A stretch of DNA of 64,000 nucleotides from Ohtaekwangia sp. (lineage in GTDB: Bacteria; Bacteroidota; Bacteroidia; Cytophagales; Cyclobacteriaceae), in contig DASXWH010000188.1 in assembly GCA_036503775.1 (NCBI GenBank), forward strand, positions 15,461 through 79,460, in the 5' to 3' direction. Under the pieces are notes generated by a model. That model made no database searches. It saw only the letters and a program-made list of their open reading frames with translations, and had not been told where the DNA came from. Within the stretch, counting starts at the first letter, position 1, and every line of letters starts with the position of its first letter. Positions 15,090 to 32,671 of the stretch are shown in pieces. The translations under genes were made by a program, and so were the position numbers.

Positions 15090-15120
15090 AAAAGGGGGGC
15101 TGATCGCCCCCTTTTTGTTT
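15090..15120 (+). terminator. Intrinsic terminator of the infC-rpmI-rplT operon
   Basis: AAAAGGGGGGC-TGATC-GCCCCCTTTTT. Confidence 0.85.
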
Positions 15121-15244: not shown

Positions 15245-18200
15245 ATGTTGAATCAACCACTTAATAACGAAGGCCAGAAATCAACATCTCCTGCATTGAT
15301 CGATGTTCAGGTAGAAGGAGAAAATCCTTTTCCAGGTCTGCGTCCCTTTACCATTGAAGAGTGCCATCTGTTTTTTGGACGAGAGGGGCAGGTGGATGAA
15401 ATCCTTAATCTAATCTCAAAAAACCGGTTTGTTTCAGTACTGGGTTACTCTGGTAGCGGTAAGTCCTCTCTTATGACTTGCGGTCTTATCCCCGTGTTAT
15501 ATGGTGGCTTTGTTACCAATTCAGGACCGCATTGGAATGTAATTTCCGCCCGCCCGGGAAATTCACCTATTCAAGGACTTACGGATGCTATCGTAAAGTT
15601 CATGGTGAATAAAAAGCAGATAAACCCTCAGGATACTCCCATTCACAAGGCTATTGTAAACTCCGTGCTTCGCAGCGGACCCAATGGATTGATCGATATT
15701 GCCCGATACATCCAGACGAATGAGAAAGAGAATATATTTCTGCTGATTGACCAGTTTGAAGAGATATTCAGGTACAGGACTGAAGAATCGGGTGAGATCC
15801 AGAATGACGGTCAGCTTTTTGTCAGTCTGGTTTTAAATGCCGTGCAGCAGTCTGATGTATCCGTTTATGCAGCCTTAACCATGCGCTCTGATTTCATTGG
15901 AGAGTGTGCTGCCTTTCCCGGATTAACACAGCTTATTAATAACAGCAATTATCTCGTCCCGCAGATGAATCGGGAGCAGAAGAAAATTGCTATCGAAGGA
16001 CCTGTTGCTGTTGCCGGTGGCAAGATTTCGCAGCGTTTGGTGAAACGGCTCTTGAGCGATATGGGAAACAACCAGGATCAGCTCCCCATTCTTCAACATG
16101 CGCTTATGCGCACGTGGGATTATTGGATGGTGAATCGTGAGCCAGGTGAACCGCTTGATATCAGACATTACAATGCTGTTGGAAAGATATCCGAGGCATT
16201 GTCCCAGCACGCCAATGAAGCATACGATGAATTAACCACACGCAACAAGGCTATTGCTGAAGTGCTGTTTAAGAATATTACAGAACGCAACCAGGAGAAC
16301 CGGGGAATGAGGAGACCCTGCCGGCTGGGTTTAATAGCACAGTTGGCGGAAGCCAGCGAAGAAGAGGTGATGGATGTGGTGGAGCAGTTTAGAAAACCCG
16401 GTCGTTCGTTCCTGATGCCGGGTGCACATGTGTCCCTGACCAGTGATTCGATGATTGAACTTTCACACGAAAGTTTGATGCGTATCTGGAACAGGCTTGA
16501 AGTATGGGTTGAGGATGAGTTCGAGTCAGCATCCATGTATAAGCGTTTGTCTGAAGCCGCTGCCATGTATCAGATTGGCAAAACGGGTTTATGGCGTCCG
16601 CCTGATTTACAACTCGCATTAAACTGGCAAAAGAAACAGAGGCCAACCCGTGAGTGGGGACAACGTTATGATGAAGCCTTTGAACGTGCTGTAGTATTCC
16701 TTGACACCAGCCGGATTACCTATGAGGCTGAATTAAAAAATCAGGAGATGATGCAGAGGCGCGTACTGCGAAGGACGCGCGTAACAGCAGTCATTTTAGG
16801 TATAGCTTTCATTGTCGCGATCCTTTTCTTCGTGTATGCTTACCTGCAAAAACTTCAGGCCGATACGGACAGGCTTTATGCGGAAACTCAAACCATAGAA
16901 GCCAAGAAGCAGCAGGCGGAAGCCTTGAAGCAAAAAACAGAAGCCGATAAGCAACGTGAATCTGCCCAGAATGCCAGAGACCAGTTGCAAACCTCTCTTC
17001 AAACCTTGGAAGATGCTTATGAATTGGTGGAGCGGGAACGTGATCGTGCTGAGGCTGCTCTTTTGTTTGCTAAAATCGAAGAGGAGCGTGCCGTAGAAGC
17101 CGGAGCAAAAGAAAAGATCGCGTTGGAAGAAGCACAGATGAACCTTGAACTGGCGGAAGCCAACCTGAACTATGCCAACAGTCTTTACTTTCTGACAAAA
17201 GCGCAGGAATTGGCTTCGAAAGCAGCCGTAGAGGAAGACGATAAACAATTAGCCGGCCTTCAGGCCATGCAAGGGTATATCTACCACAGAAGATATAATG
17301 GTAAAACCTATGATCCTTATATCTACCGCGGTCTTTACAGCGCTATAACCAAGCTGGATAATTCGAATTACAATGCCATGAAGATTCAGGGCCCGCCAAG
17401 GGTACACCTGAAATCACTTGTTGTCCCTAAAGGTGGAAAAGAATTTTATGTTTCAGGAGTTGATGGCCGTGTATACCGTGGTGACTTTCAAAAGCTCACG
17501 AATTCGGTCATGAATTTTGCTACCCCTTATCCCAGCAAAGTAATAGCCATCAGTAATGATCAGTCTGTTCTGGTAAATGGAAGTGACTCAACGTTCATCC
17601 AGATATATAATCTTCAAAAGAGCGCTAAAGCTTCAGTAGTAAAAGGCTTTAGTGGCCCAACCAATGACATTGAGTTCATACCGGGCAGTTCAGATTTTAT
17701 TGTGGTAAGCGGTGGCAATACAATCTCCAGAGTCACATCGAGTGGTGAGGCCAGAACACTGGCAAAGCTTCCTTTTGAATTAAAAACAATAACCATAAGT
17801 CCGGACGGAAACACGGTGGCCGGTGGAACATGGTCTGGCCAGGTGGTATTGTTTGACTTAAGAAACAACAATCATAGAGTGTTATTCGATGAAGTATCAA
17901 GCCGCATATTATCTATAAAGTATAACCCTTCAGGTACGCAGCTGGCCTACGGTTTAGAAGATATTGCCAACAAGCGTGGTCTGGTTAAGCTGTATGATTT
18001 CGCCTCTGAAAGATCAAGGCAGTTTACGGGACATAAAGCTGGTGTTAATGATGTTGAGTTCAGCGCGGATGAGAAGTTGCTGGCCAGTGCCGGCCTGGAT
18101 AAACGACTTCAGTTGTATGTTCTTGAAAATGTTGAAGACCTGCCGGTAGTAATGGATAATAACAACGGTTATGTATGGGATATCGCCTTTGCAAATGGCT

Positions 18201-18388
18201 CCGATATATTGATTGCTTCCTGCAGTGAATCTGAAATCAGAGTATGGCCGACTGATCCGGCTACACTGGCTGAATTAATATGTCCTAAGATCACCCGAAA
18301 CATGACACAGGATGAGTGGAAAAGATATGTAGGGAAGGAGATCAGTTATGAGAACACATGTATAAATGTATTGATACAACAACGCTGA
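15245..18388 (+). CDS. nSTAND1-like NTPase + single TM + coiled coil + WD40 beta-propeller
   Basis: NPFPGLRPF, FFGRE, Walker A GYSGSGKSS, Walker B LLIDQFEEIF, LTMRSDF, QLPILQHAL, ELSHESL; TM VTAVILGIAFIVAILFFVYAYL (~16781-16846); A/E/K/Q-rich helix; WD40 repeats (GHKAGVNDVEFSADEKLLASAGLDKRLQLY). Confidence 0.88.
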   Translation: MLNQPLNNEGQKSTSPALIDVQVEGENPFPGLRPFTIEECHLFFGREGQVDEILNLISKNRFVSVLGYSGSGKSSLMTCGLIPVLYGGFVTNSGPHWNVISARPGNSPIQGLTDAIVKFMVNKKQINPQDTPIHKAIVNSVLRSGPNGLIDIARYIQTNEKENIFLLIDQFEEIFRYRTEESGEIQNDGQLFVSLVLNAVQQSDVSVYAALTMRSDFIGECAAFPGLTQLINNSNYLVPQMNREQKKIAIEGPVAVAGGKISQRLVKRLLSDMGNNQDQLPILQHALMRTWDYWMVNREPGEPLDIRHYNAVGKISEALSQHANEAYDELTTRNKAIAEVLFKNITERNQENRGMRRPCRLGLIAQLAEASEEEVMDVVEQFRKPGRSFLMPGAHVSLTSDSMIELSHESLMRIWNRLEVWVEDEFESASMYKRLSEAAAMYQIGKTGLWRPPDLQLALNWQKKQRPTREWGQRYDEAFERAVVFLDTSRITYEAELKNQEMMQRRVLRRTRVTAVILGIAFIVAILFFVYAYLQKLQADTDRLYAETQTIEAKKQQAEALKQKTEADKQRESAQNARDQLQTSLQTLEDAYELVERERDRAEAALLFAKIEEERAVEAGAKEKIALEEAQMNLELAEANLNYANSLYFLTKAQELASKAAVEEDDKQLAGLQAMQGYIYHRRYNGKTYDPYIYRGLYSAITKLDNSNYNAMKIQGPPRVHLKSLVVPKGGKEFYVSGVDGRVYRGDFQKLTNSVMNFATPYPSKVIAISNDQSVLVNGSDSTFIQIYNLQKSAKASVVKGFSGPTNDIEFIPGSSDFIVVSGGNTISRVTSSGEARTLAKLPFELKTITISPDGNTVAGGTWSGQVVLFDLRNNNHRVLFDEVSSRILSIKYNPSGTQLAYGLEDIANKRGLVKLYDFASERSRQFTGHKAGVNDVEFSADEKLLASAGLDKRLQLYVLENVEDLPVVMDNNNGYVWDIAFANGSDILIASCSESEIRVWPTDPATLAELICPKITRNMTQDEWKRYVGKEISYENTCINVLIQQR

Positions 18389-18392
18389 TGGT

Positions 18393-19553
18393 ATGAGATT
18401 ATCCCGGGTTGTTCTGACTATTTTTTTTGCTGCAGCAATTAGCTGTCTTCAGGCTCAGGATCAGTGCGAACTTACGCTAGGCCAGGCTGCAGATGAATTC
18501 AACGCGGGTCATTTCTATGACATACCGGGCTTGTTGAAAGATTGTCTTAATCAACGGCAGAAACCGGAATGGCGTCAGCGTGCATATCTGCTTTTAGCCC
18601 AAACGTATTTGCTCCTTGACGATCCTGAAGGTGCTGAACGAAGCTACCTGGAGGTACTCAGAGCGAACCCGGAGTATGTTACGAATGACACTCAGGACCC
18701 TATTGATTTGGTTTATCTGAGTTCAAAATTCACTGCCTCACCTGTTTTTTCCCTGTTCGGCAAGATTGGCCCTAATGTTTCGATCATCAGACAGATCGTT
18801 GACCGCAAAGCCTTTGTAGGCAGTATTGATGAGCGTTATATACTTCGACCGGGATTTCAGATTGCCTTTGGAGCGGACTGGAACTATGACGACAACCTTT
18901 CTGTGGCACTGGAAGGGAATTTTGTTTTCAGTGCGTACAAATTGGAAAGCAAAGGTGTATTCGACCATGATGTGGTAGAATTTAAAGATCAGCAAACCTG
19001 GGCCCGGATACCACTGTCTGTTAAGTACACCGATGATCAGGGAAAATACCGGCCTTATGGATATGTAGGGATTTCAGCTGACATCCTCTTGAGCGATAGA
19101 GCTACATTCCTGTATACCGATGGCACGCTTAACCAAACGGATGGAGTTGTAAAAATGGACCAACAGGTTGAGGAGAGTCCCGTGTTGAATTTAAAATCCA
19201 AACGAAACACATTTAATTACTCCTGGTTTATTGGTGGTGGACTTAAATACAAACTTGGTCTTCAATACGCCTTTATTGACCTGCGCTATTCATTTGGAAT
19301 GACCAACCTGGTCAATACAAATAATAGTATCTATGAATACGGCATGGGTGACAGAACCTCAGCGGATTTTCAGGGCACCGGAGAACCGACAATGACCTGG
19401 GGACACATTGATGATTATTTCAGAATGGATAATCTGTTTTTATCTGTGGGATATGTATACCCGCTCTATAAGCCACGAAAATTGAAGAAGGCCCGTTCGC
19501 GATCTGTTTTACGTTCGATCAAAAAACAAAAGCATGAAGTTACGGGCGACTAA
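18393..19553 (+). CDS. Outer-membrane beta-barrel (PorT/OMP_b-brl_2-like) with N-terminal TPR-like domain
   Basis: Signal peptide to LQAQ; helical AYLLLAQTYLLLDDPEGAERSYLEVLRANPEY; alternating strands RIPLSVKY, RPYGYVGISADILL, FIDLRYSFGMTN, LSVGYVYP. Confidence 0.72.
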   Translation: MRLSRVVLTIFFAAAISCLQAQDQCELTLGQAADEFNAGHFYDIPGLLKDCLNQRQKPEWRQRAYLLLAQTYLLLDDPEGAERSYLEVLRANPEYVTNDTQDPIDLVYLSSKFTASPVFSLFGKIGPNVSIIRQIVDRKAFVGSIDERYILRPGFQIAFGADWNYDDNLSVALEGNFVFSAYKLESKGVFDHDVVEFKDQQTWARIPLSVKYTDDQGKYRPYGYVGISADILLSDRATFLYTDGTLNQTDGVVKMDQQVEESPVLNLKSKRNTFNYSWFIGGGLKYKLGLQYAFIDLRYSFGMTNLVNTNNSIYEYGMGDRTSADFQGTGEPTMTWGHIDDYFRMDNLFLSVGYVYPLYKPRKLKKARSRSVLRSIKKQKHEVTGD

Positions 19554-20865
19554 TCTTTTATTTATTCTGACGTTGCTTTGTATTGCTTTTGCCTGTGATA
19601 CAGGTGGGGAGTATACGGGAGAATCTGAAAAGTATTTTATTAAATACTATGGTGAAGATGGAGAACAGGAAGCAGTCGATTTCCATATTAATGACGATGG
19701 AACGGTGCTTATTCTCGCCAGTACAGTAACACCTTCAGGTTTCAAGCAGATACTGCTAATTAAAGTCGATGATAAGGGGAATATCCTCTGGCAAAAAAAA
19801 TACGGAACACCAAATGTAAATGAGGGGCCTCAGGACATTGAACCTACTGTAAATGGCGGACAATTTCTGATCTTATCAAACATGTTTTTAGGAACCGATC
19901 CGTCAACAAATGAAGGTAAGTATGACTTCAAGGTAATTCGAATTGAAGAAGATGGTACAAAGATCGATAGCATGGTGTTTAACAATAACGGGGGTGACTG
20001 GGAAACTCAGTTTATGCGGTCGATAACTCCGATCTCTAATGGAGGTTTTGTTACTACGGGAAACTCTACTGATGAAACTATTTTTGATCCTGATAAAGTC
20101 CCACCCTCGGTTGATCTGGAAGAATTAATCATTCTCACATTTAATTCTGACTATTCACAATACTTGTCGCAAAATCCGGTATCGCCCGGAGAACAATTTG
20201 GTTCGGGCATTAAAATCTTTGAGGATGGTAATGATGCAGACAGATTTTTTTGGTTCTGTTACCTCGATCAGAAACCGGCCAGTCATGAAGCTGAGAATTC
20301 AAACTTTGCAACGTTCAGTTTTGGATTGAGCGGCCAGTTGGAAGTACCACCTCCGGGTAGCGAATCAGCTGTGTTCTCAGGTGTGGATGGTACCGATGAA
20401 ATATTAGTCTCGGTTTGCAAAGTACCGAATTCTCTGGGGGGAGGATTTTATGAATTGGGAACATCCCGATCTTCATCTACGGCAACATCGGGAACGTTGT
20501 ATTTTAGTCGGAGAGGTCCAAACCTTACAAAAACAAGTGAAGGTTTCGTATTGAATAAGGAGGGTAATCCGTTAGGCGGTAATCTTTCCGCTGTAGATGT
20601 AGCACCTGCTAAAGTGGTTGAAGGTTTTTTAGTATTAGCGAATGAACAGACTTCAACGGGAAGTACGATACGTCTGACCAGGCTCACATCATCAAGCCGG
20701 GAGGAATGGTCAACTAATTTTGGATCATTTGGCAGGTTCAACAGCGGAGCAAAAGTGGCCGAATTACCGGACGGAAGAATCTTTGTTTTGGGGACAATTG
20801 CACTGGAAACTCAGAAGAAGGTAGCCCTGATCAAGGTTAATCGGAATGGCGAATTTTTAAACTAG
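19534..20865 (+). CDS. Lipoprotein, probable beta-propeller-like repeats, function unknown
   Basis: Lipobox ..IAFA-C at residue 21; repeats LLIKVDDKGNILWQKKYG, RLTSSSREEWSTNFG, LIKVNRNGEF. Confidence 0.7.
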   Translation: MKLRATNLLFILTLLCIAFACDTGGEYTGESEKYFIKYYGEDGEQEAVDFHINDDGTVLILASTVTPSGFKQILLIKVDDKGNILWQKKYGTPNVNEGPQDIEPTVNGGQFLILSNMFLGTDPSTNEGKYDFKVIRIEEDGTKIDSMVFNNNGGDWETQFMRSITPISNGGFVTTGNSTDETIFDPDKVPPSVDLEELIILTFNSDYSQYLSQNPVSPGEQFGSGIKIFEDGNDADRFFWFCYLDQKPASHEAENSNFATFSFGLSGQLEVPPPGSESAVFSGVDGTDEILVSVCKVPNSLGGGFYELGTSRSSSTATSGTLYFSRRGPNLTKTSEGFVLNKEGNPLGGNLSAVDVAPAKVVEGFLVLANEQTSTGSTIRLTRLTSSSREEWSTNFGSFGRFNSGAKVAELPDGRIFVLGTIALETQKKVALIKVNRNGEFLN

Positions 20866-20942
20866 CGTAAAGCTTGTATATTTCGTGGTTACATTTTTTA
20901 AGGGAAATTCATAAACACCCTAACCGGAATCCCCTTTTGACA

Positions 20943-23900
20943 ATGAGGAGATATTTTTTAGCCTTTTTAGTAACCCTTTCCGCTTTTGCGGCAATTCCGG
21001 CTCATGCCCAGTGTAATTTCACGGGTCTTAATTCTTCGTATTGTATTGACAATGGCTTGGTTCCGCTCACCGGAGGGACTACATATTATGGCCCTGGTGT
21101 TACCGGAAGCAATTTTAATCCATCAGTTGCCGGACTAGGTACCCACCAGCTTGTTACCACTTCAGGATCAGCAACTACTTACTTTGTTCAAACAACAGGC
21201 ACGTTTAATCCTGTGGCAGGATCAGGGACTTCGGTCGTACTGGCCGATGATGCAGAAACCGGATTATTAAGCATCGGTTTTACATTCAATTTTTTTGGTA
21301 CCAACTATACCGATCTGCGTATCGCTTCGAATGGACTATTGGGGTTTGGATCTCCAGCTGCATTAACAAACAGTAACAATGTGGCACTGCCAAATGCAGT
21401 TGATCCGGACAATATTATCGCCTTTGCCTGGGATGACCTGAATCCTGCTCTCGGAGGTACGATCGATTACTTCACAACAGGTTCTGCACCCTACCGGAAG
21501 TTCATCGTGAACTTCACGAATATCAGACGAGTTACTTCGTTGACTACAGTTACTATACAGGTGCAGCTCCATGAGAGCACCAATATCATAGAGCTTCACT
21601 CCACGAATGTTGACTTCTCAGCCAACTTTGCTACACAGGGTATTGAAGGTCCTGATACGGGTACTACGGTGGCTTATGTTGTACCCGGTAGAAATCTCGC
21701 TTCGTTTACCGCTGTCAACGACTTTAAAGCATTTGTCCCGACTTGTGTCGATATCCAGAATGTAACGGTCACTGGATTACCAACGGCTTCGCTTACGGTT
21801 TCACCGGCTTCAACTACCGTATGTGCAGGAAGTTCTGTTCCTGTTACCATTACATCGGCACAGGCGGGTGTACTCTACCAGCTTCGTAACAATGCAACAA
21901 ATGTTCCGCTTAGCGGGAGTTTTTCGGGATCAGGTGGTAATCTGATTATCAATAGCGATCCCATCTCAGCAAACACAGTTATAAAAGTCTACGCACAAAA
22001 TGCAACTACACTTTGTGATGTTGATCTTTCAAACCTTGTAACCGTTACCACCACAACACCTCCGACAGCAGCAGCGGCTGGCTCTGATAATTCTGTATGT
22101 GGACTGACGGCAAATCTTACCGGAAATATTCCTGGAGTTGGTACAGGATTATGGACGAAAATAAGCGGCCCGGGAACAGTTAATTTTGGTGATAATACAC
22201 TTGGAACATCAACCGCTACGGTTGATGCATATGGTACGTACATTCTTCGCTGGACAACAAGCAATGGAGTATGTACACCAAGTACAGATGATGTTATAAT
22301 AACCTATAGCCAGGCTCCGATCATTGCCACCGATCCATCTCCTCAGGTTGCCTGTACCAACTCATCTGCCACGTTCAGTGTAGTTGCTAATGGCACAGCG
22401 CTTACATATCAGTGGCGTAAAGGTGGAGTTAACATAGGAGGGGCAACCAGTTCGAGTTATACCATATCCAATGTAACAGCCACTGATGTCGACAACTATG
22501 ATGTCGTGGTGAGCGGCTCATGTGGCTCACCAGTTACCAGTACAGCAGCTTCCTTAACTGTAAATTCGTTACCATCAATTTCTGTTCATCCTGTATCGCA
22601 ATCAATTTGCGTAGGAGGTGGGGTTACATTTAGTGTTACAGCCGCAGGTACAGGTGTTACGTATCAGTGGCGCAAGGGGGGAGTAAACATAGTCGGAGCT
22701 ACGAGTTCAAGTTATAGCATAGCCAGCGTTGCCACGGGTGATGCGGGACTTTATGATGTAGTGGTAGGGGGCACGTGTACACCAAGTGTGACGAGTGCAT
22801 CTGCGACCTTAACGGTCAATACCCTTCCGTCCATCACGGCTCAGCCTGCACCCGCGCAGTCGATCTGCGAGCGCAGCGGAGTAAGCTTCAGTGTTACGGC
22901 TACAGGCACGGGCTTAACGTATCAGTGGCGCAAGAACGGAGTAGACATCGGAGGCGCCACGGGTTCACTGTATACGATAGCATCCACCAGTACTTCCGAT
23001 GCTGGCAGCTACACGGTAGTGGTGAGCGGCACCTGTACACCGGGAGTTACCAGCGCAGCGTCAGTATTAACCATCAACGAGCAGCCGGAGATCCTTACGG
23101 GTCCGGTGTCGCAGTCTATCTGTGTGGGCAGTGGCGTTACCTTCACGGTGTCTGCGGGTGTGACTACAGGTGTTACGTATCAGTGGCGCAAGGGGGGAGT
23201 AAACATAGTCGGAGCTACGAGTTCAAGTTATAGTATAGCCAGCGTTGCCACGGGTGATGCGGGACTTTATGATGTAGTGGTAAGCGGCACGTGTACACCA
23301 AGTGTGACGAGTGCATCCGCGACCTTAACGGTCAATACCCTTCCGTCCATCACGGCTCAGCCTGCACCCGCGCAGTCTATCTGCGAGGGCAGCGGAGTAA
23401 GCTTCAGTGTAACGGCTACGGGTACAGGCTTAACGTATCAGTGGCGCAAGAACGGAGTAGACATTGGAGGCGCGACAGCTTCCACCTATTCCATATTGAA
23501 TGTAACAACTGCCGATGCAGCAGACTATGATGTTGTTATCAATGGTACCTGTACACCTGGAGTCACGAGTGCAATAAGTGCGCTTGCTGTAAATACCTTA
23601 CCGGTAATCACAGCACATCCGGTAACAAGCCAGACGATCTGTGAAGGAAGCATTGCCAGCTTTAGTGTCACGGCAACCGGCACAAACCTGACCTATCAGT
23701 GGCGGAAGAATGGCGTGGATATCGGAAGCGCAACCTCTTCAACATATACCATTCCTGCTACGGCAACGACCGATGCCGGAGTTTACGCTGTTTTAGTTAG
23801 TGGCACATGTGTACCTCCGATGTTGAGTACAAGCTCTCAGCTTATCATCAACGAACAACCCGAGATAATCACGCAACCTGTTTCCGAGATTATTTGTGCA

Positions 23901-26900
23901 GGTCAGAATGTGACCTTCAGCGTGGATGCTGGTGTTACTACAGGCGTAAGTTATCAATGGAGAAAAAATGGATCGAACATAGGAGGGGCAACATCCTCAA
24001 CGTATACCATTACGAATGCGGTAGCAGGTGATGCCGGCAGCTATGACGTAGTGATAAGTGGTGCCTGTGCACCGAGCTTACCAAGTTCAGCGGCAACACT
24101 CACAGTAAATCCGATTCCGGATGCGCTGGCTTCAGATCAGGCAATATGCAGTGGGCAAACAACCAATATCGCCATCACTAATCCGAATGGAGTTTCAGGT
24201 ACTACATTCAGCTGGACAGTGCAGAATTCAATTGGCGTCAGTGGTGCCTCCGCAGGAACCGGTGGACCGAACACGGCTAACATTGCCCAACTGCTTTCAA
24301 CGACCGGACCTGCACAGGGATCGGTGACATACATAATAACACCTGTGGCTGCGGGATGTAATGGAACTTCTGTAGCGGTGAGTGTGAATGTTAAACCTAT
24401 CCCGGATGTTGCCGCGTCACCACAGGTTATTTGTAACGGATCGAGTACAAGTATTGCGATAACAAATCCGAATGGTGTTGCCAATACAACCTTTACATGG
24501 ACTGTAGTATCATCTCCCAACGTTACCGGAGCATCAGCCGGAACGGGGTCTGCAATCACTCAGGTTTTGAATTTAGTATCCGCTACCAGTTCGGGAACAG
24601 TTACCTACGAGGTTACACCCATTTCCGGTGGTTGTCTGGGAACACCTGTTACCGTTTCTGTCACGGTTAATCCAAGGCCTCAGATCACAACACCTCCGGC
24701 ATCTATGATCCAGGAGATCTGTAGTGGTGTGCCATTGAATTTTACACCATCAACCTCGATCGGAGCTACATTGGACTGGACATCTTCCATTGTAGGACCT
24801 CCATTGACAGGTGTTTCAGCTTCCGGTTCAGGAGCGATAACGGATACTCCTGTCAACGCTTCGAATACAAGCTCATTCATTATCTATACCATAACACCTT
24901 CAATAGGAGGAACCTGCAGCGGAACTCCAGCGAATTTTGTTGTGAATGTTAAACCGAGACCAACAGCAGCAGCTAATCCACAAACGATCTGTTCTGGAAA
25001 TTCAACGTCTGTGTCGATCACAAACCCCAACAATGTTTCGGGAACAACCTTCTCCTGGGTGGCAACACCTACGGATGTGAACGGATATTCAGATGGTTCC
25101 GGAAATGTAATCAGCCAGGTGCTTTCTACGGCTATTATGGATACTCCGGGATCAGTAGATTACTTGATAACGCCTTCAGCCAATGGCTGCGCAGGAACAC
25201 CGATCAATGTCCTGGTGGATGTTAAGCCTGTACCTGTAATTACCAATACGGCTGCGAGTTTGTCACAACAGATATGCAGTGACGAGACCCTAAATCTTAA
25301 CCTGACCTCAACAATTACAGGGGCCACTTTCTCCTGGACAACTACATTTACCGGGCCGATTGATCCGGCATCGATCAATGCGGGTTCCGGAACCGTTATA
25401 AATGATTCGCCCAGGAACATTGGAAATACAACAGGTATCGTTACCTATACCATCACACCAAGTTTCAACGGTTGTGATGGTGTACCTGTCAGCTTTGTTG
25501 TTGCTGTTAAACCCATCCCATCTGCAACGGCATCAAATGTCACGGTCTGCAGCGGTGAGACAGCTATCGTATCCATACTTCCGACACCGAATAATGTTGC
25601 GGGAACTACTTTCGCATGGACAGCTACACCAACTTCAAATGTTGTGGGAGGGCTAAGCGGAAACGGCTCCACGATCAGTCAGACATTATCCACAACGGAT
25701 GCATCCATTGGATCGGTTACATATTCGATCACTCCAACGGCTAATGGATGTAGTAATCCTGTACCTGTAACGGTGACGGTTACCGTGAATCCTTCTGTAA
25801 CCGTGAATGCAGGTTCTGACTTTAGTGTATGTGAACCCGTTACTTTCCCGATCAGCGGAACGGTATCCGGAAGCGCTACTACCGGAACATGGTCAATCGT
25901 TTCTGGTGGTGGTACCTTATCTTCAAGTTCAACTGCGCCTTCAGGAACTCCGGGCGAATATTTAATTACAGCAACCTACACAGTTGATCCTGCAGATATA
26001 GCTGCAAGCGTTACGTTCAGATTAACCACAAATGATCCGGATGGCGGTTCAGGACCTTGCACAGACAAATCAGATGAACTGACGGTAAATATTAATGAAC
26101 AGGCAAAGCTGACTGTTCCGGCTAACTATACAGTTTGTGAGCCGACCAGATTTACACTTGCCGGAACCTTAACCGGTAGTGCTACATCGGGTTCATGGAG
26201 TTTGATAACGGGTAACGGTGGTTTAAATGTAAGTAATGTTTCGGTGGTGAGCCCGACACTGCGGAATGTAACCGCAGACTATTTCCCGGATGTCACTGAC
26301 GTTACAACTACTTTACGGTTCAGATTGACTACGATTGATCCGGATGGTTCCGGTCCTTGCGTGGCCGAATACGCTGAGGTTGACGTTCATGTGAATCAGT
26401 CTGCTCGTGTTAATGCAGGTATTGATTTTGAAATATGCAAAGGCGAGGTTGCCCAACTCAATGGAAGCCTTGCACCTTCAGCATCGTCAATTACCTGGAG
26501 TGGTGAACCTGCCTCGCGGTTCTCTGATATAAATGATCTGGCATCTCAGTTCATGCCAACGCAGGCAAACATTGATGCTGGTGGTGTTACATTAACGATC
26601 TCTTCAAATGATCCGGATGGTAGCGGACCCTGCGGCATTGTAAATGATGATGTGTTCATCAGGATTAATCCTATTCCTCAACCTGTGATAGCAGACCTGG
26701 CAAATTCATATGCGGAGAATGACCCGATCGTGCCCATCACGGGTTTCCCGTCTCCGGGTGTATTCACAGGACCTGGTATACAAGCCGGAACAAACCTTTT
26801 CGATCCGGGTGATGCGAACATCGGTTTTGATACGATTGTGTATACGTATACCAACCCTACTACAGGTTGCGTTGGAGATACGAGCAAGGTTGTTATCATT

Positions 26901-29396
26901 AACCCGCTTACAGATATAAATTTTGGTCTGCAGGTTGAAGGCTCTCCGTTTGTTGATTTCAGTATCGAACCTAAGATATGCAGTAACAATGGAAAGGTGA
27001 GACTAATTGGTGATCCGGATATTTCGGAAGGCGAGGATCCTACCGATTTTTCCGCCCCGATCACTCCGGAAATACTGGGTTCAGACGCGATGGGTTGGTA
27101 CATAAATACAGATGGAAGATGGTCCGGTCAATACTTTGTTAAGTATACCTACACCAATGAGTTCGGTGCAACCAACGAGATCCTGAAGAAGATCATTATA
27201 AATGCTTCACCGAAAGCTCAGATCGGAGCTAGTAATTCATGCGTAACGGATATCGTTCAGTTCACTGACCTGTCTGTGATACCGGATGATTCATTGAATG
27301 CACAAATAGAAAGGTGGGAGTGGGACTTTGATGACGGAGGCGCCAAGAAAACAGATCAGAACCCGGATTGGAAATTCGACACAGAAGGATTTTATGACGT
27401 GGTGTTGACTGTCACTACATTTGATAACTGTACAGCAGATACCGTTAAGCAGATACGTATTGGTACAACACCGGATGTTGACTTTGAGTGGACAAAAGTA
27501 TGCGTGTCACGTGATACAACTGAGTTTAGAAATTTGTCCGATGGAGGTATCAGTAATATTATAAAATACCAGTGGGATTTTGGTGATACCTATACAACGC
27601 CTTTGGATACAGCATCCGAAATGATTCCTCCGACACTGGATGGCGGCCGCACGTCCAACACATTCCAGGATCCTTATCATAAATACGATGCTTTCTCAAC
27701 GTACAATGTAGTACTTACAGCAGAGACGGATGATGGTTGTATCAGTTCGAAAACGAAGAAAGTATACATTCTCGACTACCAGAAACCGGATGAAGAACTG
27801 GATTCAGCCTACATTGAAAACTTCGACAGTGGCCCAGGTACATGGGTGAAGATAGATGCTGATACCGCATCGAGTTGGGTGTTCGGTCTCCCTGCCGGAA
27901 ATGTGATTAATTCTGCGGCTTCGGGTAACAATGCATGGTGGACAGGTTCGAATCCGAATTCAGTCACGGATTACAGTACGTACTTCGACAATGAAAACTC
28001 TGAAGTTATCGGACCCTGTCTGAATTTGAGTGCGCTTGAACGGCCTATGATATCACTCAGCTACTGGTCAGATACCCCGCAGGGATTTGATGGAGCAGTC
28101 GTTCAATATTCAACCGATGGTGGACAAAACTGGGAAACGATCGGGGACGCTTTGGGTGCTGGTATTAACTGGTATAATGCACCTGACCTTGTAAGTGAAC
28201 CCGGTGGACAGGATAACTATGCATGGTCATCACGTAATGCAAAATGGAGAAGAGCAAGCTTCAACCTGGATCAGATAACCCAGCGTGATCTGGTAGTGTT
28301 CCGGGTAGCGTTTGCAAGTAATAATGATAACCTGAATGATCCGAAAACATTAAATGGTTTTGCATTCGATGATATTTATATCGGTGAGAAGAGAAAGAAT
28401 GTGTTGGTTGAACATTTCACCAGTGATAATCTTGATGCTCCAGGTCTTTTCGCAATTGACTACCTGGATGGTCTTGATGCCCGGAACTTCAACCGGATCC
28501 AGTACCACATTGCCAATCCTTCCGGTGATGTTATCAACGAAGCTAATCAGGCTGATCCGTATGCGCGAACGCTTTTGTATAGCGTGCAGGCTGCACCGGT
28601 TGCGATCATGGATGGTATTACCGGGGCTTTTGGTAAAGAAACCAACTTCAACGGAGCGTATGACAAAATAACCAATGAAGAATTAGACAGAAGATCACTT
28701 GAAGAGCCTTCATTTGATATAACAGTTGACATTAATCCTTCTGCACCGGATATGTTGAATGTTGATTTCCAGTATTCATTTATTGATATGGATGATACGA
28801 TTTCAGCTCCGGTCATCTTACACGCTGCATTGGTGGAGACAGGTTTACCGGGTAATCCGTATGGTAATAAGAACTCATTACGGAAGCTTCTCTTTGGTCC
28901 GGAGGGATGGGTTATTGATGCTCAATTGAATGCAGGGGTATTGTTTGACTCCATACGATCGAATATGAATTTCCCGATTGATGTTCCGGTGGTCGATGGT
29001 AACAAGCTTTCAATCATTGCCTTTGTACAGGAAAAGAAAACGACACGGATACTTCAGTCGGTACAGGTGCCCATTCCAGGTCCTAAGCAATCACAGGCTC
29101 CGGTAGGACTTCCGGATGATCCGATTGTGTCTGAGATCAGTAAAGTAAGTATCTATCCTAACCCGGCATCCCAGAACATCAACGTGTACCTGGAAGAGAA
29201 GCTGAAACATGACTATCACTGGAAGATCATTGACCAGCGTGGTGTGGTGGTATTGGATGGTGAACTGCAGCGCGATCTGACCAACGCTCAGCAGGTGGAT
29301 ATCAGCACCATTGCCAATGGTATTTACTTCATGGCCATTCAGTATGGCGACCGTGCAGTTCTCTACAAGAAGATAGCGGTGATGAACAGAAATTAA
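20943..29396 (+). CDS. Giant T9SS-secreted multi-domain surface protein (nidogen-like, Ig, PKD-like, PKD, MAM/ConA-like, Omp28-like, type A CTD)
   Basis: ATG at 20943 gives signal peptide MRRYFLAFLVTLSAFAAIPAHAQ; 7x QWRK(N/G)G Ig units; 6x TF.W...V.Y.ITP units; 3x DPDG(G)SGPC units; W(E/Q)WDF PKD motifs; CTD IYPNPASQ...ANGIYFMAI...KKIAV. Confidence 0.88.
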   Translation: MRRYFLAFLVTLSAFAAIPAHAQCNFTGLNSSYCIDNGLVPLTGGTTYYGPGVTGSNFNPSVAGLGTHQLVTTSGSATTYFVQTTGTFNPVAGSGTSVVLADDAETGLLSIGFTFNFFGTNYTDLRIASNGLLGFGSPAALTNSNNVALPNAVDPDNIIAFAWDDLNPALGGTIDYFTTGSAPYRKFIVNFTNIRRVTSLTTVTIQVQLHESTNIIELHSTNVDFSANFATQGIEGPDTGTTVAYVVPGRNLASFTAVNDFKAFVPTCVDIQNVTVTGLPTASLTVSPASTTVCAGSSVPVTITSAQAGVLYQLRNNATNVPLSGSFSGSGGNLIINSDPISANTVIKVYAQNATTLCDVDLSNLVTVTTTTPPTAAAAGSDNSVCGLTANLTGNIPGVGTGLWTKISGPGTVNFGDNTLGTSTATVDAYGTYILRWTTSNGVCTPSTDDVIITYSQAPIIATDPSPQVACTNSSATFSVVANGTALTYQWRKGGVNIGGATSSSYTISNVTATDVDNYDVVVSGSCGSPVTSTAASLTVNSLPSISVHPVSQSICVGGGVTFSVTAAGTGVTYQWRKGGVNIVGATSSSYSIASVATGDAGLYDVVVGGTCTPSVTSASATLTVNTLPSITAQPAPAQSICERSGVSFSVTATGTGLTYQWRKNGVDIGGATGSLYTIASTSTSDAGSYTVVVSGTCTPGVTSAASVLTINEQPEILTGPVSQSICVGSGVTFTVSAGVTTGVTYQWRKGGVNIVGATSSSYSIASVATGDAGLYDVVVSGTCTPSVTSASATLTVNTLPSITAQPAPAQSICEGSGVSFSVTATGTGLTYQWRKNGVDIGGATASTYSILNVTTADAADYDVVINGTCTPGVTSAISALAVNTLPVITAHPVTSQTICEGSIASFSVTATGTNLTYQWRKNGVDIGSATSSTYTIPATATTDAGVYAVLVSGTCVPPMLSTSSQLIINEQPEIITQPVSEIICAGQNVTFSVDAGVTTGVSYQWRKNGSNIGGATSSTYTITNAVAGDAGSYDVVISGACAPSLPSSAATLTVNPIPDALASDQAICSGQTTNIAITNPNGVSGTTFSWTVQNSIGVSGASAGTGGPNTANIAQLLSTTGPAQGSVTYIITPVAAGCNGTSVAVSVNVKPIPDVAASPQVICNGSSTSIAITNPNGVANTTFTWTVVSSPNVTGASAGTGSAITQVLNLVSATSSGTVTYEVTPISGGCLGTPVTVSVTVNPRPQITTPPASMIQEICSGVPLNFTPSTSIGATLDWTSSIVGPPLTGVSASGSGAITDTPVNASNTSSFIIYTITPSIGGTCSGTPANFVVNVKPRPTAAANPQTICSGNSTSVSITNPNNVSGTTFSWVATPTDVNGYSDGSGNVISQVLSTAIMDTPGSVDYLITPSANGCAGTPINVLVDVKPVPVITNTAASLSQQICSDETLNLNLTSTITGATFSWTTTFTGPIDPASINAGSGTVINDSPRNIGNTTGIVTYTITPSFNGCDGVPVSFVVAVKPIPSATASNVTVCSGETAIVSILPTPNNVAGTTFAWTATPTSNVVGGLSGNGSTISQTLSTTDASIGSVTYSITPTANGCSNPVPVTVTVTVNPSVTVNAGSDFSVCEPVTFPISGTVSGSATTGTWSIVSGGGTLSSSSTAPSGTPGEYLITATYTVDPADIAASVTFRLTTNDPDGGSGPCTDKSDELTVNINEQAKLTVPANYTVCEPTRFTLAGTLTGSATSGSWSLITGNGGLNVSNVSVVSPTLRNVTADYFPDVTDVTTTLRFRLTTIDPDGSGPCVAEYAEVDVHVNQSARVNAGIDFEICKGEVAQLNGSLAPSASSITWSGEPASRFSDINDLASQFMPTQANIDAGGVTLTISSNDPDGSGPCGIVNDDVFIRINPIPQPVIADLANSYAENDPIVPITGFPSPGVFTGPGIQAGTNLFDPGDANIGFDTIVYTYTNPTTGCVGDTSKVVIINPLTDINFGLQVEGSPFVDFSIEPKICSNNGKVRLIGDPDISEGEDPTDFSAPITPEILGSDAMGWYINTDGRWSGQYFVKYTYTNEFGATNEILKKIIINASPKAQIGASNSCVTDIVQFTDLSVIPDDSLNAQIERWEWDFDDGGAKKTDQNPDWKFDTEGFYDVVLTVTTFDNCTADTVKQIRIGTTPDVDFEWTKVCVSRDTTEFRNLSDGGISNIIKYQWDFGDTYTTPLDTASEMIPPTLDGGRTSNTFQDPYHKYDAFSTYNVVLTAETDDGCISSKTKKVYILDYQKPDEELDSAYIENFDSGPGTWVKIDADTASSWVFGLPAGNVINSAASGNNAWWTGSNPNSVTDYSTYFDNENSEVIGPCLNLSALERPMISLSYWSDTPQGFDGAVVQYSTDGGQNWETIGDALGAGINWYNAPDLVSEPGGQDNYAWSSRNAKWRRASFNLDQITQRDLVVFRVAFASNNDNLNDPKTLNGFAFDDIYIGEKRKNVLVEHFTSDNLDAPGLFAIDYLDGLDARNFNRIQYHIANPSGDVINEANQADPYARTLLYSVQAAPVAIMDGITGAFGKETNFNGAYDKITNEELDRRSLEEPSFDITVDINPSAPDMLNVDFQYSFIDMDDTISAPVILHAALVETGLPGNPYGNKNSLRKLLFGPEGWVIDAQLNAGVLFDSIRSNMNFPIDVPVVDGNKLSIIAFVQEKKTTRILQSVQVPIPGPKQSQAPVGLPDDPIVSEISKVSIYPNPASQNINVYLEEKLKHDYHWKIIDQRGVVVLDGELQRDLTNAQQVDISTIANGIYFMAIQYGDRAVLYKKIAVMNRN
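22649..23476 (+). repeat. Near-identical intragenic direct repeat (22649-22960 and 23165-23476)
   Basis: Two ~312-bp copies offset by 516 bp (172 codons); I count 12 mismatches by eye (~96% identity). Confidence 0.9.
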
Positions 29397-31309
29397 TCGG
29401 GGAGTATTTCCTGTGAAAGTTCTGGGAGGATCACATTGCACCGGTTGATAAAGTCATTGGCTAACCTTTTCACTTCCGACAGATTGGTTTGAGCTTTACT
29501 GTTTTCTTCAATGAAAACAATATCAGATCGCATAGCATCAAGGCCCATGAGGGTGAAAGATGGTTTGATCTGGTGAACAAGCCTGGATAGTTTAGTCCAG
29601 TCGCTGGCTTCCATGGATACTTTCATCTCCTGAAGAACCGGTGGTATGGTTTGGATAAAGGTTGTCACCATTTCCCGGATAAATTCCTGGTTGTTACCGG
29701 ATACTGAACGGAGGTAATCCAGATTGTAAGTAGGGGTACCGGCAGGCTTGAATGACTTAAGTATCTCCTTGTCACTGGGCCTGATCTTTAAATCTTCAAA
29801 GAGCTTGCGATAGAGATCTTCTGGCGTGAAGGGCTTTGGCAGGTAATCGTTCATACCGGCAGCAAGGCATTTTTCGACATCGTGGGGTGTAGCGTTCGCT
29901 GTCAGCGCGATTATGGGAACCTGTGCAGATTGAGCCATCGCCCGGATTACTTTGGTGGCTTCGTATCCATCCATTACCGGCATCTGGATATCCATCAGAA
30001 CAACATCAAAGAAACTGTTCTTGATTTTTTCAATGGCTACCAATCCGTTTTCTGCCGTGTCAATGAGGCAATGCCATTTCTTCAAAATGCTCTTGGCGTA
30101 AAGACGGTTGATGTCGTTATCCTCTACCAGTAATACCCTCAGCTCTTCAACTTTTGTATCTTTTAATACTTTGTCTTGTTGTGGTGTGGTGTTCAGAATA
30201 GCTTTTACTTTTCCGATAGAGTAGGGGATTACCACCATAAATGTGGATCCGACATTCTCACGACTCACCACATGTATTTTACCATTCTGCAATTCCACCA
30301 GTTGTCGTACAATGGTAAGTCCAAGGCCTGTACCACCATACCTTCGCGTAACGCTTTCATCGGCCTGGCTGAAGCTTTCAAAAATGGTATTCAGTTTTTC
30401 TTCCGGGATACCAATGCCCGTATCACTCACTTCAATTTTTACCCAGCAGACACCCCGCTGTTCCCGCTCAGCAAAACATTTGATCTGTATTGATCCATTG
30501 TGAGTGAACTTCACGGCATTGCTGATCAGGTTGATGAGGATCTGATTTAACCTCACCGGATCACCCAACAGTATTTTATTCAGCTTCTCATCGATGGAGT
30601 AGCTCAGATCAATTTTCTTTTCCTTGGCCTGATAGGTAAACGTTCCAATGAGCGAGGGGAGAAGGTCGAGTAAATTGAAGGCTATTTTTTCGAGACGCAG
30701 TTTCCCGGATTCTATGGCGGCAAGATCCAGGATATCATTGATGATCACCTTGAGGTTTTCAGCGGAATGGCGGATAGCATTCAGGTATGTTTCGCGTTCA
30801 TCAGGGCTTGGATTTTGTCCCAGCAGGTTAGCCATCCCGGCTATTCCATTAATGGGGGTCCGTATTTCGTGACTGATGTTTGCCAGAAATTGTTCTTTGG
30901 CTTTTTGAAGACGCTTAAGTTCAACCTCATCATTCTTTCGTTGTTCAATATTACGGCAGTCCAGAATGAACCCGGATAATCCTTCCTTATGCTTCAGGTT
31001 GATAGCGTTGAATTCCAGGTAGCGGTATGTTCCGTCTTTGCTGAGGAACTGAAATTCTACATTTTCAGTGTACGCACGTTTTTGGCTGAGCTTGAATTTC
31101 TCACGCATCTCCTTCACCGTTGAAGGAAGCAGATAGTCAAAAAAGTTCTTGCCTATGAGGCTTTTTGCCCGGTAGCCCAGGGTTTCCATTACGGAAGCAT
31201 TGTGGTAGTTAATGTTTCCGGTATAATCAACCACAAAGATGATATCCGAACCGTCTTCAACAACGGCTTCGTAGAAAGCACCTTTCTTAACGTAGTTCTG
31301 TAATTTCAT
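29393..31309 (-). CDS. Cytoplasmic hybrid histidine kinase (PAS-HisKA-HATPase-REC-Hpt)
   Basis: PAS N-terminus with no TM; FLANISHEIRTPING; NAVKFT, DTGIGI, GGTGLGL; VLMDIQMP; Hpt-like LVHQIKPS. Confidence 0.92.
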   Translation of the reverse strand: MKLQNYVKKGAFYEAVVEDGSDIIFVVDYTGNINYHNASVMETLGYRAKSLIGKNFFDYLLPSTVKEMREKFKLSQKRAYTENVEFQFLSKDGTYRYLEFNAINLKHKEGLSGFILDCRNIEQRKNDEVELKRLQKAKEQFLANISHEIRTPINGIAGMANLLGQNPSPDERETYLNAIRHSAENLKVIINDILDLAAIESGKLRLEKIAFNLLDLLPSLIGTFTYQAKEKKIDLSYSIDEKLNKILLGDPVRLNQILINLISNAVKFTHNGSIQIKCFAEREQRGVCWVKIEVSDTGIGIPEEKLNTIFESFSQADESVTRRYGGTGLGLTIVRQLVELQNGKIHVVSRENVGSTFMVVIPYSIGKVKAILNTTPQQDKVLKDTKVEELRVLLVEDNDINRLYAKSILKKWHCLIDTAENGLVAIEKIKNSFFDVVLMDIQMPVMDGYEATKVIRAMAQSAQVPIIALTANATPHDVEKCLAAGMNDYLPKPFTPEDLYRKLFEDLKIRPSDKEILKSFKPAGTPTYNLDYLRSVSGNNQEFIREMVTTFIQTIPPVLQEMKVSMEASDWTKLSRLVHQIKPSFTLMGLDAMRSDIVFIEENSKAQTNLSEVKRLANDFINRCNVILPELSQEILPD

Positions 31310-32671
31310 TTAAATCCCTGCCGCCTCCATTTCCTTGAGATATCGGTAAAGGGAGGATTTTCCAATATCAAGCTTCTGCGCTACATCCAGCACATTATTG
31401 TCATACTTGTTCAGGTAATGGCGGATGATGCGATACATAAATTCCTGCATGGTCATTTCCTGGTATAGGAAAGACTCCATTCGGGTAGTGCTGTTGAAGC
31501 TTATATCCTGTGCGCGTATCTCCTGGTCTTCAGCCATAACTGCAGACAATTCAATAATCGATTTAAGCTCACGGATGTTTCCCGGGAAGGGGTATTGAAG
31601 CAGCTTTTCCTGTGCCTCCTGGCTGATTTTAAACTTGCGCATCTGGTTATCCTGAGCGAACTGATCCAGGAAATGTTTGGCTATAAGTATCACATCCTGA
31701 CCACGTTCACGTAACGGTGGTAAATGGATGGGTAAGCCCAGCAGACGATAATATAAGTCCTCGCGGAACCGCCCGCCTTTCACTTCTTCAGCCAGATCTT
31801 TATGCGTTGCAGCGATGATCCGAACATCCAGCTTTATTACCTGATTACCACCGATTCGGGTTATTTCCCGCTCTTGCAATACCCGTAAAAGTTTAGCCTG
31901 AAGGTTAAGGTCCATCTCACCAATTTCATCCAGGAAAATGCTGCCGCCTTCAGACTCTTCAAACTTCCCGATCCTGCGGGTGACCGCCCCGGTAAAGGAG
32001 CCCTTCTCATGACCGAAGAGTTCACTTTCAATAAGGTCTCTTGGAATAGCGGCAATGTTAACGGCTACGAACGGTTTGTTCTTGCGCTTGGAATTATAAT
32101 GAATGGCCTTGGCCACAAGTTCTTTACCTGTACCTGTTTCTCCCGATATACTTACTGAGATGTTAGTCTGAACCGCCTTTTCCAGAAGTGAAAAGGTGCG
32201 CTTGATCGCAACACTTGTACCGATGATGCTTTTTTCGAACTCGTACTTTTCTGAAATTTCCTTTTTCAGATGGTCGATTTCTTTGATCAGCGAGGTGCGG
32301 TTCCTGGCGTTATTGATCGAGTTAAGAAGACGCTCTTTTGTTTCGTGGTCTTTTGAAATATAGTCATAGGCTCCCAGTTTCAGGAGTTCCACCGCGGTGT
32401 GGATTTTCTCCTGAGCAGAAACCACAATGACGTTGATGTTGGGATCATGACTCCTTATCTGACTCAGCACTTTTTCTCCGGGCATGTCCGGTAAGGAATA
32501 GTCCAGTGTAATTACGGCTGGGTTTTTATACAGATTCTCCAGGCAGTTCTTGCCCGAATTGTAATACTCCACTTCATAGTCCGGATTGAGTTCCAGAACA
32601 TATTTGAGGAATTTGGTGTATGCAGGATCATCCTCAACTACAAAAATTTTAACGGGATCTTTCTCGTACAT
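31310..32671 (-). CDS. Sigma-54-dependent response regulator (NtrC family)
   Basis: REC (VVEDD, TLDYSLPD); GETGTGKE; GSFTGA; FLDEIGEM; FREDLYYRL; GNIREL; C-terminal HTH. Confidence 0.92.
   Translation of the reverse strand: MYEKDPVKIFVVEDDPAYTKFLKYVLELNPDYEVEYYNSGKNCLENLYKNPAVITLDYSLPDMPGEKVLSQIRSHDPNINVIVVSAQEKIHTAVELLKLGAYDYISKDHETKERLLNSINNARNRTSLIKEIDHLKKEISEKYEFEKSIIGTSVAIKRTFSLLEKAVQTNISVSISGETGTGKELVAKAIHYNSKRKNKPFVAVNIAAIPRDLIESELFGHEKGSFTGAVTRRIGKFEESEGGSIFLDEIGEMDLNLQAKLLRVLQEREITRIGGNQVIKLDVRIIAATHKDLAEEVKGGRFREDLYYRLLGLPIHLPPLRERGQDVILIAKHFLDQFAQDNQMRKFKISQEAQEKLLQYPFPGNIRELKSIIELSAVMAEDQEIRAQDISFNSTTRMESFLYQEMTMQEFMYRIIRHYLNKYDNNVLDVAQKLDIGKSSLYRYLKEMEAAGI

Follow-up and report, generated by a model that had tools for sequence, protein, structure and literature searches.

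Architecture of a membrane-spanning STAND protein

We analysed a 64,000-nucleotide stretch of DNA from Ohtaekwangia sp. (GenBank assembly GCA_036503775.1, contig DASXWH010000188.1, positions 15,461 to 79,460 of the forward strand), here called the window and numbered from its first letter. Gene C (15245..18388, + strand; the features described below lie on this strand unless marked otherwise) encodes a 1047-amino-acid (aa) protein in which an nSTAND1 NTPase is followed by a transmembrane (TM) helix, a helical stalk and a WD40 propeller. An earlier note on this DNA had presented C as a lone receptor-like STAND protein. We found instead that it heads a conserved four-gene envelope operon, C-D-E-F, in a genome that holds two further genes of the same system, A and B, at other sites.

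By its full-length profile match and its intact P-loop and Walker B acidic residues, C is an nSTAND1 STAND NTPase. The domain begins at N27-P28-F29, directly after a 26-residue tail. The NTPase module (residues 28-443, 15326..16573, predicted cytoplasmic) matches Pfam PF20703 with an E value of 2.4e-91 and 307.6 bits against a cut-off of 27.1, covering profile positions 1-372 of 379. WD40-type Pfam matches follow at residues ~730-1010, so both domain assignments of the earlier note held up against hidden Markov model (HMM) profiles. We read motif conservation from an alignment of 45 homologues sharing 32-87% identity, and this bore out the description of both nucleotide-binding motifs as intact. 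Seven of the nine positions of Walker A (GYSGSGKSS, residues 67-75, 15443..15469), which fits GxxGxGK[ST], are invariant (G67, S69, G70, G72, K73, S74 and S75), leaving only Y68 and S71 to vary. The Walker B region (FLLIDQFEE, residues 165-173, 15737..15763), including the IDQFEE motif named in that description, has invariant D169, Q170, F171, E172 and E173. Three further segments are invariant, TMRSD (212-216), LP (280-281) and SHES (407-410), and occupy what we take to be the STAND sensor, GxP-like and MHD-like positions. Identity within C is highest in the NTPase (75% among close homologues and 59% among distant ones) and lowest in the stalk (49% and 28%) and propeller (61% and 30%), so constraint peaks in the NTPase although no other domain is fused to it. 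A PDB sequence search for solved relatives of the NTPase returned WD40 proteins only.

Between the NTPase and the membrane lies a conserved juxtamembrane segment (residues 444-512, 16574..16780), predicted to be cytoplasmic, which ends in a basic RRVLRRTR patch. Its invariant residues include W461, W471, R474, Y475, E480, E496, E501 and Q504, and the cytoplasmic end of the TM helix is near-invariant (E496, E501, Q504, R506, R510 and R512). The single TM helix itself, VTAVILGIAFIVAILFFVYAYL (residues 513-534, 16781..16846), reaches a Kyte-Doolittle peak of 2.83 over 19 residues and is the sole hydrophobic peak in C able to span the membrane. Within 15 residues on either side, the N flank contains six K/R and one D/E, and the C flank two K/R and three D/E. 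A TM helix is found in all full-length homologues: 137 of 161 have one hydrophobic peak at a cut-off of 1.6, and the remainder have one dominant peak in the same place. The N flank is the more positive in every one of the 137 single-peak homologues (mean net charge +3.4 vs -0.7).

We modelled C with AlphaFold2 from a 45-row alignment, at a mean predicted local distance difference test score (pLDDT) of 84.3. The NTPase is compact in this model, and a helix spanning residues 479-662 runs unbroken through the membrane segment. Its part beyond the membrane, a predicted periplasmic stalk (residues 535-662, 16847..17230), comprises 128 helical residues, or ~19 nm at 0.15 nm per residue; the earlier figures of ~125 residues and ~18 nm thus hold. 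Taking every seventh stalk residue from 539 to 644 gives one uninterrupted register, in which Ala is the commonest residue at 13 of 16 heptad positions and occurs in 41-45 of the 45 sequences at 10 of them. Between these heptad positions the residues vary, with many E, K, R and Q among them. In 32 of the 45 sequences, 156 residues (the 535-690 stretch) separate the TM helix from the propeller. From this near-constant length, the Ala register and the near-invariant cytoplasmic end, we infer that the stalk is a rigid transmission element, which would pack against its own copies or a partner.

Two 'neck' helices (residues 667-705, 17243..17359; pLDDT >90) lie between the stalk and a seven-bladed WD40 beta-propeller (residues 711-1002, 17375..18250). 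The propeller is assigned from the AlphaFold2 model together with WD40-type Pfam and PDB WD40 matches, and in Foldseek comparisons it superposes on seven-bladed WD40 domains, with a TM-score of 0.90 for the WD40 domain of PkwA. The protein ends in C-terminal helices (residues 1005-1046, 18257..18382) that carry a Cys pair, C1013/C1039. Both cysteines are present in 44 of the 45 homologues and both are absent from the one with a truncated tail; their co-conservation supports a periplasmic location for the propeller.

Together, we infer that C is bitopic, with the NTPase in the cytoplasm and the WD40 propeller in the periplasm on a ~19 nm stalk. The same N-in/C-out orientation had been proposed from the basic patch before the single TM helix, and it gains strength from the universal positive-inside bias, the Cys pair and two features of the downstream genes: the products of D, E and F are all exported, and D carries a TPR-like module that elsewhere precedes the plugs of TonB receptors.

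The region upstream of gene C

Gene C is preceded by thrS, identified by Pfam, and then by three open reading frames (ORFs) that we read as infC, rpmI and rplT, naming them by sequence and by conservation in relatives, without an HMM. A terminator-like hairpin after rplT (15090..15115), formed by a G+C-rich 9-pair stem, AAAAGGGGGGC...GCCCCCTTTT, and then a T-rich tail, lies between the ribosomal-protein operon and the STAND gene. It sits within an rplT-to-C intergenic gap of 172 bp and leaves a 129-bp spacer before C. The reading frame of C is open for only eight codons upstream of its ATG (1055 vs 1047 aa). An in-frame or frameshifted effector further upstream, which the earlier note had allowed for, is ruled out by the gap, the terminator and this short open extension: with rplT and its terminator directly in front, there is no room for one.

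The protein itself offers no effector either. Its N-terminal tail (residues 1-26, 15245..15322) is variable (35% identity among close orthologues), predicted to be disordered (pLDDT 31-34) and free of domains or Pfam matches, and we found no nuclease, TIR, SIR2, protease or DUF4062 domain fused to the NTPase. A TIR or DUF4062 gene adjoining C upstream is likewise absent at the window locus, where rplT and the terminator stand instead. The claim that C has no effector is therefore right in cis, where only the 26-residue tail precedes the domain. It does not extend to the system as a whole: in the ancestral operon B abutted C, with A before B, and the genome still encodes B (contig C185) and a lineage-matched A (contig C23).

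An envelope module downstream of gene C

C-D-E-F is, by its gene spacing and synteny, a conserved envelope module and a predicted operon. A gap of 4 nt separates C from D, D and E overlap by 20 nt, and 8 nt separate E from F. The 386-aa product of gene D (18393..19553) combines a Sec signal peptide with a TPR-like module, an OMP_b-brl_2 barrel and a basic C-terminal helix; in its structural model a helical, TPR-like domain with a Cys pair (residues 22-112) is followed by long strands (113-363) and then by the basic helix. Gene E (19534..20865) encodes a 443-aa lipoprotein (signal ...CIAFAC/DTGG) whose fold is probably a beta-propeller. Gene F (20874..29396) encodes a 2840-aa surface protein with Ig/PKD repeats and a type IX secretion C-terminal domain. 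We found no gene in the operon for a protease or another periplasmic output enzyme.

This arrangement is conserved. D lies directly 3' of C in all full-length same-family (f1) loci examined, including a paralogous copy in the source genome, and C-D-E synteny holds in all of them. A giant ORF comes next wherever the contig continues, and it follows E in each of the three operon forms described below. Where C orthologues are 58-63% identical, D is 41-48% and E 27-32% identical, and F ranges from 1642 to >3985 aa across all loci. Divergence of the module thus grows from the cell interior outward.

We found that the pairing of C with the D module also reaches other families. In two further Bacteroidota families the gene after C encodes a TonB-dependent receptor with Plug and barrel, whose N-terminal ~110 residues are homologous to the TPR-like module of D (E 1e-10 and 3e-13), Cys pair included. 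Extensions before the plug of known TonB-dependent receptors are periplasmic, and since the same module precedes the plug in receptors beside relatives of C, the module of D is predicted to be periplasmic as well. A D-module profile searched against 301 Bacteroidota genomes gave seven matches at E <= 5e-32. Each of the seven has a full-length C gene immediately 5' of it, and the five genomes that contain these matches are the only ones of the 301 with such a gene. Given this strict gene adjacency we propose that C and D make contact, the stalk or propeller of C probably docking on the TPR-like module of D.

Several side observations concern D, F and their surroundings. The C-terminus of D (window 19474-19553) carries a conserved basic segment, ...VGYxxPLYKPRKLKK..., with no terminal aromatic, which is unusual for a barrel protein; the segment is predicted to form an amphipathic helix (residues 369-383). 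Contigs of many draft genomes break off within a few kb of the start of F (L053, L054, L060 and L062-L066), and F is often truncated in databases, probably because its Ig/PKD repeats break assemblies. Downstream of F, the window has two genes of 638 and 453 aa on the minus strand (29393-32671). ORFs of the same size and orientation follow F in relatives (L055 and L056), and the neighbourhood beyond the operon may therefore be syntenic.

Operon forms and unlinked partners

The source genome assembly (5.4 Mb in 309 contigs) also carries a paralogous six-gene operon, on contig C185. Its first gene, A, encodes a 1068-aa protein with a polytopic membrane region and HEAT repeats, and with a weak, sub-threshold cyclic nucleotide (cNMP)-binding match at its C-terminus (E 0.021). 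The second, B, encodes 482 aa with a weak TIR_2 match and a DUF4062 match. The third is a C gene whose product is 41% identical to the window protein and alike in layout, and D, E and F follow. A TIR/DUF4062 gene abutting the NTPase gene is present both at this paralogue and at a third pair on contig C120, so TIR pairing is the norm in this genome, from which the window gene departs. The third TM-nSTAND1 protein, on contig C120 (L052:5734-9654, - strand), has 1306 aa and a single TM helix near residue 572, after which come TPR repeats and a weak WD40 match. The start of its nSTAND1 gene is overlapped by a gene (L052:9611-11029, - strand) encoding a clear TIR domain (TIR_2 E 8.8e-15).

Comparison of 58 loci revealed three operon forms: A-B-C-DEF, A-C-DEF and rplT|C-DEF. 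In a maximum-likelihood tree of 42 C proteins, eight rplT-adjacent genes and two A-C forms make up a 100/100 clade, which is nested within a 99/98 clade of A-C forms. The A-B-C forms occupy the other side of the tree and include members from other families. On its simplest reading this nested tree shows that B left the operon first and that the operon then split from A, an order of gene loss running from ABC to AC to C alone beside rplT. Such a splitting of the operon would account for a window copy that lacks an effector in cis.

Judged from the genomes tested, A and B were unlinked from the window operon, not discarded. A distinct A lineage, A2 (31-34% identical to the paralogue's A), always accompanies the window C lineage; it adjoins C in the A-C forms and lies elsewhere in the rplT forms. 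The number of A genes equals that of C genes in 11 of 11 tested genomes (two and two, or one and one). One clear B is present in each of 11 tested genomes with the window C lineage, one of which has an extra weak match (E 3e-13). In the source genome, B is the contig C185 gene, and A2 is a 1052-aa ORF on contig C23 with HEAT and cNMP_binding matches (E 6e-9). Because that frame is open for all 1052 aa, we could rule out that A2 is a pseudogene. Loss of A from the rplT form was ruled out in turn by an unlinked A2-lineage gene in seven of seven tested rplT-form genomes. One of these (G338) has its A2 on contig C4 (29031-32189), in the same orientation as F and ~6.7 kb 3' of where F ends; three genes intervene.

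We also considered whether an effector might be borrowed only from the paralogous operon. This idea is weakened by three genomes of 99-100% completeness (G324, G338 and G361), each of which has exactly one C, in the rplT form, and no paralogous C-F, and keeps B as an orphan. The orphan B adjoins the orthologue (72-79% identity) of a 774-aa gene that flanks the six-gene operon of the source genome; A and C-F are gone from this site. Among 121 genomes of the family, a C-type match occurs in 83 and B in 76, and all 76 B-positive genomes are C-positive. Taken with the constant presence of A2, these patterns make B and A2 the probable cytoplasmic partners of the window C. The earlier note had offered two outputs for C, in trans or mechanical. 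Retention of both genes fits the former, which is the better of the two.

Distribution and genomic setting

Matches to C are patchy across the phylum, occurring in 13 of 301 Bacteroidota genomes. Most genomes of the family have one to two copies. We retrieved more than 120 full-length database relatives with 62-87% identity and lengths of 1032-1061 aa; orthologues overall are 58-87% identical and near-constant in length. The window form is fixed beside infC-rpmI-rplT in eight genera. PADLOC returned nothing of note for C, D or E; C matched HEAT-ARM_XIII through its WD40 repeats and gave one marginal P-loop match. NCBIfam gave sub-threshold matches only for C, D, E, A2 and B. Phage carriage was discarded as a possibility, with only two partial NTPase-like matches in unannotated 'Bacteriophage sp.' records. 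C behaves as expected of a fixed envelope function, one linked to the giant type IX substrate F.

Full-length relatives also occur on three plasmid records, namely two Persicobacter replicons of 405 and 859 kb and an 88-kb plasmid of Runella rosea. The Runella rosea relative (NZ_CP030852.1, 56757-77897; L077) has 31% identity to C. It is flanked on one side by partner-switching genes, encoding a STAS protein, an anti-sigma antagonist and an RsbW-like ATP-binding protein. On the other side lie genes for a TonB-dependent receptor, a GNAT protein, a 962-aa 'MFS transporter' that is possibly A-like, and a histidine kinase. This locus presents a different cytoplasmic wiring around the C-D pair.

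Proposed mechanism and alternatives

We propose that C acts as a switch operated from outside the cell. Its propeller would read the state of the outer-membrane and surface complex formed by D, E and F, and the signal would travel along the continuous helix to the cytoplasmic NTPase. The NTPase would then exchange nucleotide and oligomerise, as STAND proteins do, and in its activated form would engage B and A2, supplied from contigs C185 and C23. We consider this package as a whole somewhat probable, its weakest step being the direction of signalling.

A number of points weigh against this scheme. The stalk is modelled with low confidence as a monomer (pLDDT 44-50 at residues 541-598), and weaker relatives of the D TPR module occur in genomes without C. 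Every genome with any C also has B, which might therefore be kept for a role unrelated to the window C, and phylogenetic inertia inflates the counts of B-C co-occurrence. Finally, the position in the first TIR-like domain of B that we take to be that of the catalytic Glu of the TIR motif is occupied by H, Y, N or G in the family, with E in a distant relative only. Since the presumed catalytic Glu is not kept, B may lack enzymatic activity and serve as an adaptor.

The signal could also run from the inside out. An NTPase cycle, perhaps responding to nucleotide or cNMP status via A, would change the oligomeric state of the stalk and propeller and, through D and E, govern the assembly, anchoring or release of F; the output would be mechanical and periplasmic, with no need of a cytoplasmic effector. 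A comparable logic operates in the control of the LapA adhesin by LapD/LapG. In favour of this scheme are the invariant C-D-E-F core, from which A and B can be unlinked, the giant type IX secretion system (T9SS) protein that always follows E, and a window form without a cis effector. A near-constant stalk with a fixed Ala register is what a rigid strut would look like, and D has weak, sub-threshold matches to T9SS barrels of the PorT/SprT type. However, ligand-triggered switching, not motor activity, is what STAND NTPases are known for. All tested genomes keep A and B even when unlinked, which argues for a cytoplasmic branch, and the operon lacks a protease or other periplasmic output enzyme. 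We think it unlikely that C works in this direction.

Defence offers a different purpose for the same parts. Here, the periplasmic WD40 domain would detect a phage or competitor component, and the STAND, resembling Avs with an external sensor, would activate TIR/DUF4062 NADase chemistry in B and a cNMP-gated A, stopping growth. nSTAND1 has been described in predicted counter-invader systems (Kaur et al. 2021, PMC8195603), and relatives with fused caspase or TIR domains appear in the part of that study's source-data table considered here. Avs2 and further defence systems contain DUF4062 as a TIR-like NADase domain, and in PsAvs2 it has been shown to act as an NADase effector. The genome holds a third TIR and TM-nSTAND1 pair, F is highly variable, and both the patchy distribution of C and its three plasmid records would suit a defence gene. 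Several observations run counter to this. PADLOC returned no meaningful match, and the window form occupies a fixed housekeeping site beside infC-rpmI-rplT in eight genera, not a mobile island. Orthologues are well conserved and near-constant in length, most genomes of the family carry one or two copies, and the fixed partners of C are structural proteins of the envelope. The Glu presumed to be catalytic in the first TIR-like domain of B is not kept in the family. We therefore give an antiphage or conflict sensor little credence.

The notion that the hydrophobic helix is only an anchor, or is mis-oriented, with the propeller cytoplasmic as in ordinary soluble STANDs, is highly improbable: classical WD40 domains are mostly cytoplasmic, but C has a single TM helix and no second hydrophobic segment to return the chain, its NTPase needs cytoplasmic nucleotide, the charge bias is uniform across the single-peak homologues, the operon partners are all exported and a long stalk would be purposeless on the cytoplasmic side.

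Returning to the outside-operated switch, we tentatively raise a broader possibility, of which we remain doubtful. Cytophagales might possess a trans-envelope receptor that follows NLR logic, passes down vertically and has no immune role, in which a STAND protein reads a surface complex of TPR-bearing barrel, lipoprotein and giant polymorphic T9SS adhesin through a periplasmic propeller on an Ala-striped stalk of fixed length and signals in trans to a TIR-like adaptor and a cNMP-binding, transporter-like protein, encoded anywhere in the genome. To our knowledge, all characterised bacterial NLR-like STAND proteins are soluble and sense in the cytoplasm. If true, a STAND with an extracytoplasmic repeat sensor and a dedicated outer-membrane partner would be the bacterial equivalent of a transmembrane pattern receptor and reveal a way of coupling an NLR module across a membrane. 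The window locus provides a natural experiment in minimal form: its place in the chromosome is stable, and C has no effector either fused to it or next to it. The retention of unlinked partners leads us to predict that A2 and B mutants would phenocopy C mutants. More generally, this analysis cautions against reading every set of STAND, TIR or cNMP genes as phage defence.

Comparison with known systems

The layout of C has precedents. The earlier note took antiphage and NLR-like STANDs to be usually soluble with fused effectors, a generalisation that needs qualifying, since membrane-spanning members are already on record in a source-data table and in a published prediction. In that table (Kaur, Iyer, Burroughs and Aravind 2021, eLife 10:e70394, PMC8195603), 'nSTAND1+TM+BetaPropeller' is listed 278 times. 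Its Cytophagales rows include 'TIR+DrHyd-> nSTAND1+TM+BetaPropeller' and the fused 'TIR+nSTAND1+TM+BetaPropeller', and caspase fusions occur too. In the passages considered here, the 'nSTAND1+TM+BetaPropeller' class and C are alike in Pfam family and domain order. The downstream barrel, lipoprotein and giant T9SS genes, and the effector-less rplT-adjacent form, do not figure in those same passages. The main text of the study names nSTAND1 once and does not discuss topology (PMC8195603). For some TM-bearing NACHT proteins, sensing at the membrane or in the periplasm was predicted by Kibby et al. A sensor domain in the periplasm was likewise predicted by Dore et al. for certain STAND proteins targeted by diversity-generating retroelements (DGRs). 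Our literature search found no paper combining STAND, NTPase, WD40 and type IX secretion, and none linking such a STAND to an outer-membrane barrel, a lipoprotein or a type IX substrate.

Among defence systems, Avs and bNACHT proteins, DUF4062(NIR)-Avs2 included, resemble C in joining a STAND switch to a repeat sensor, and the TIR_2 and DUF4062 matches of the ancestral partner B add to the likeness. They differ from C in being mostly soluble, with the effector fused at the N-terminus. C, unlike Avs, has no meaningful PADLOC match, its effector-like partner is separate and unlinked, and it is chromosomally fixed by ribosomal-protein genes.

The envelope side of the module recalls cell-surface signalling of the FecA-FecR type, in which an outer-membrane barrel with an N-terminal periplasmic extension works with a bitopic inner-membrane partner. 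D, a barrel with an N-terminal extension, adjoins the bitopic C, whose periplasmic part could receive that extension. The likeness to FecA is closer in other families, where the D gene encodes a genuine TonB-dependent receptor, complete with Plug and barrel. D in the window is small and plug-less, and its TPR-like module with a Cys pair takes the place of a FecA-type signalling domain. C departs from FecR in being a STAND NTPase, not an anti-sigma factor, and the operon contains no extracytoplasmic function (ECF) sigma gene.

The closest structural counterpart of C is eukaryotic: full-length murine Apaf-1 (3sfz) is the top Foldseek match for the whole model (E 8.8e-19). Like C, Apaf-1 and other AP-ATPase STAND-WD40 switches place a P-loop STAND NTPase before a WD40 sensor. 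Apaf-1 is soluble and has an N-terminal CARD effector-recruitment domain and two propellers, whereas C has no such N-terminal domain and interposes a TM helix and a 128-residue stalk between its NTPase and a single propeller.

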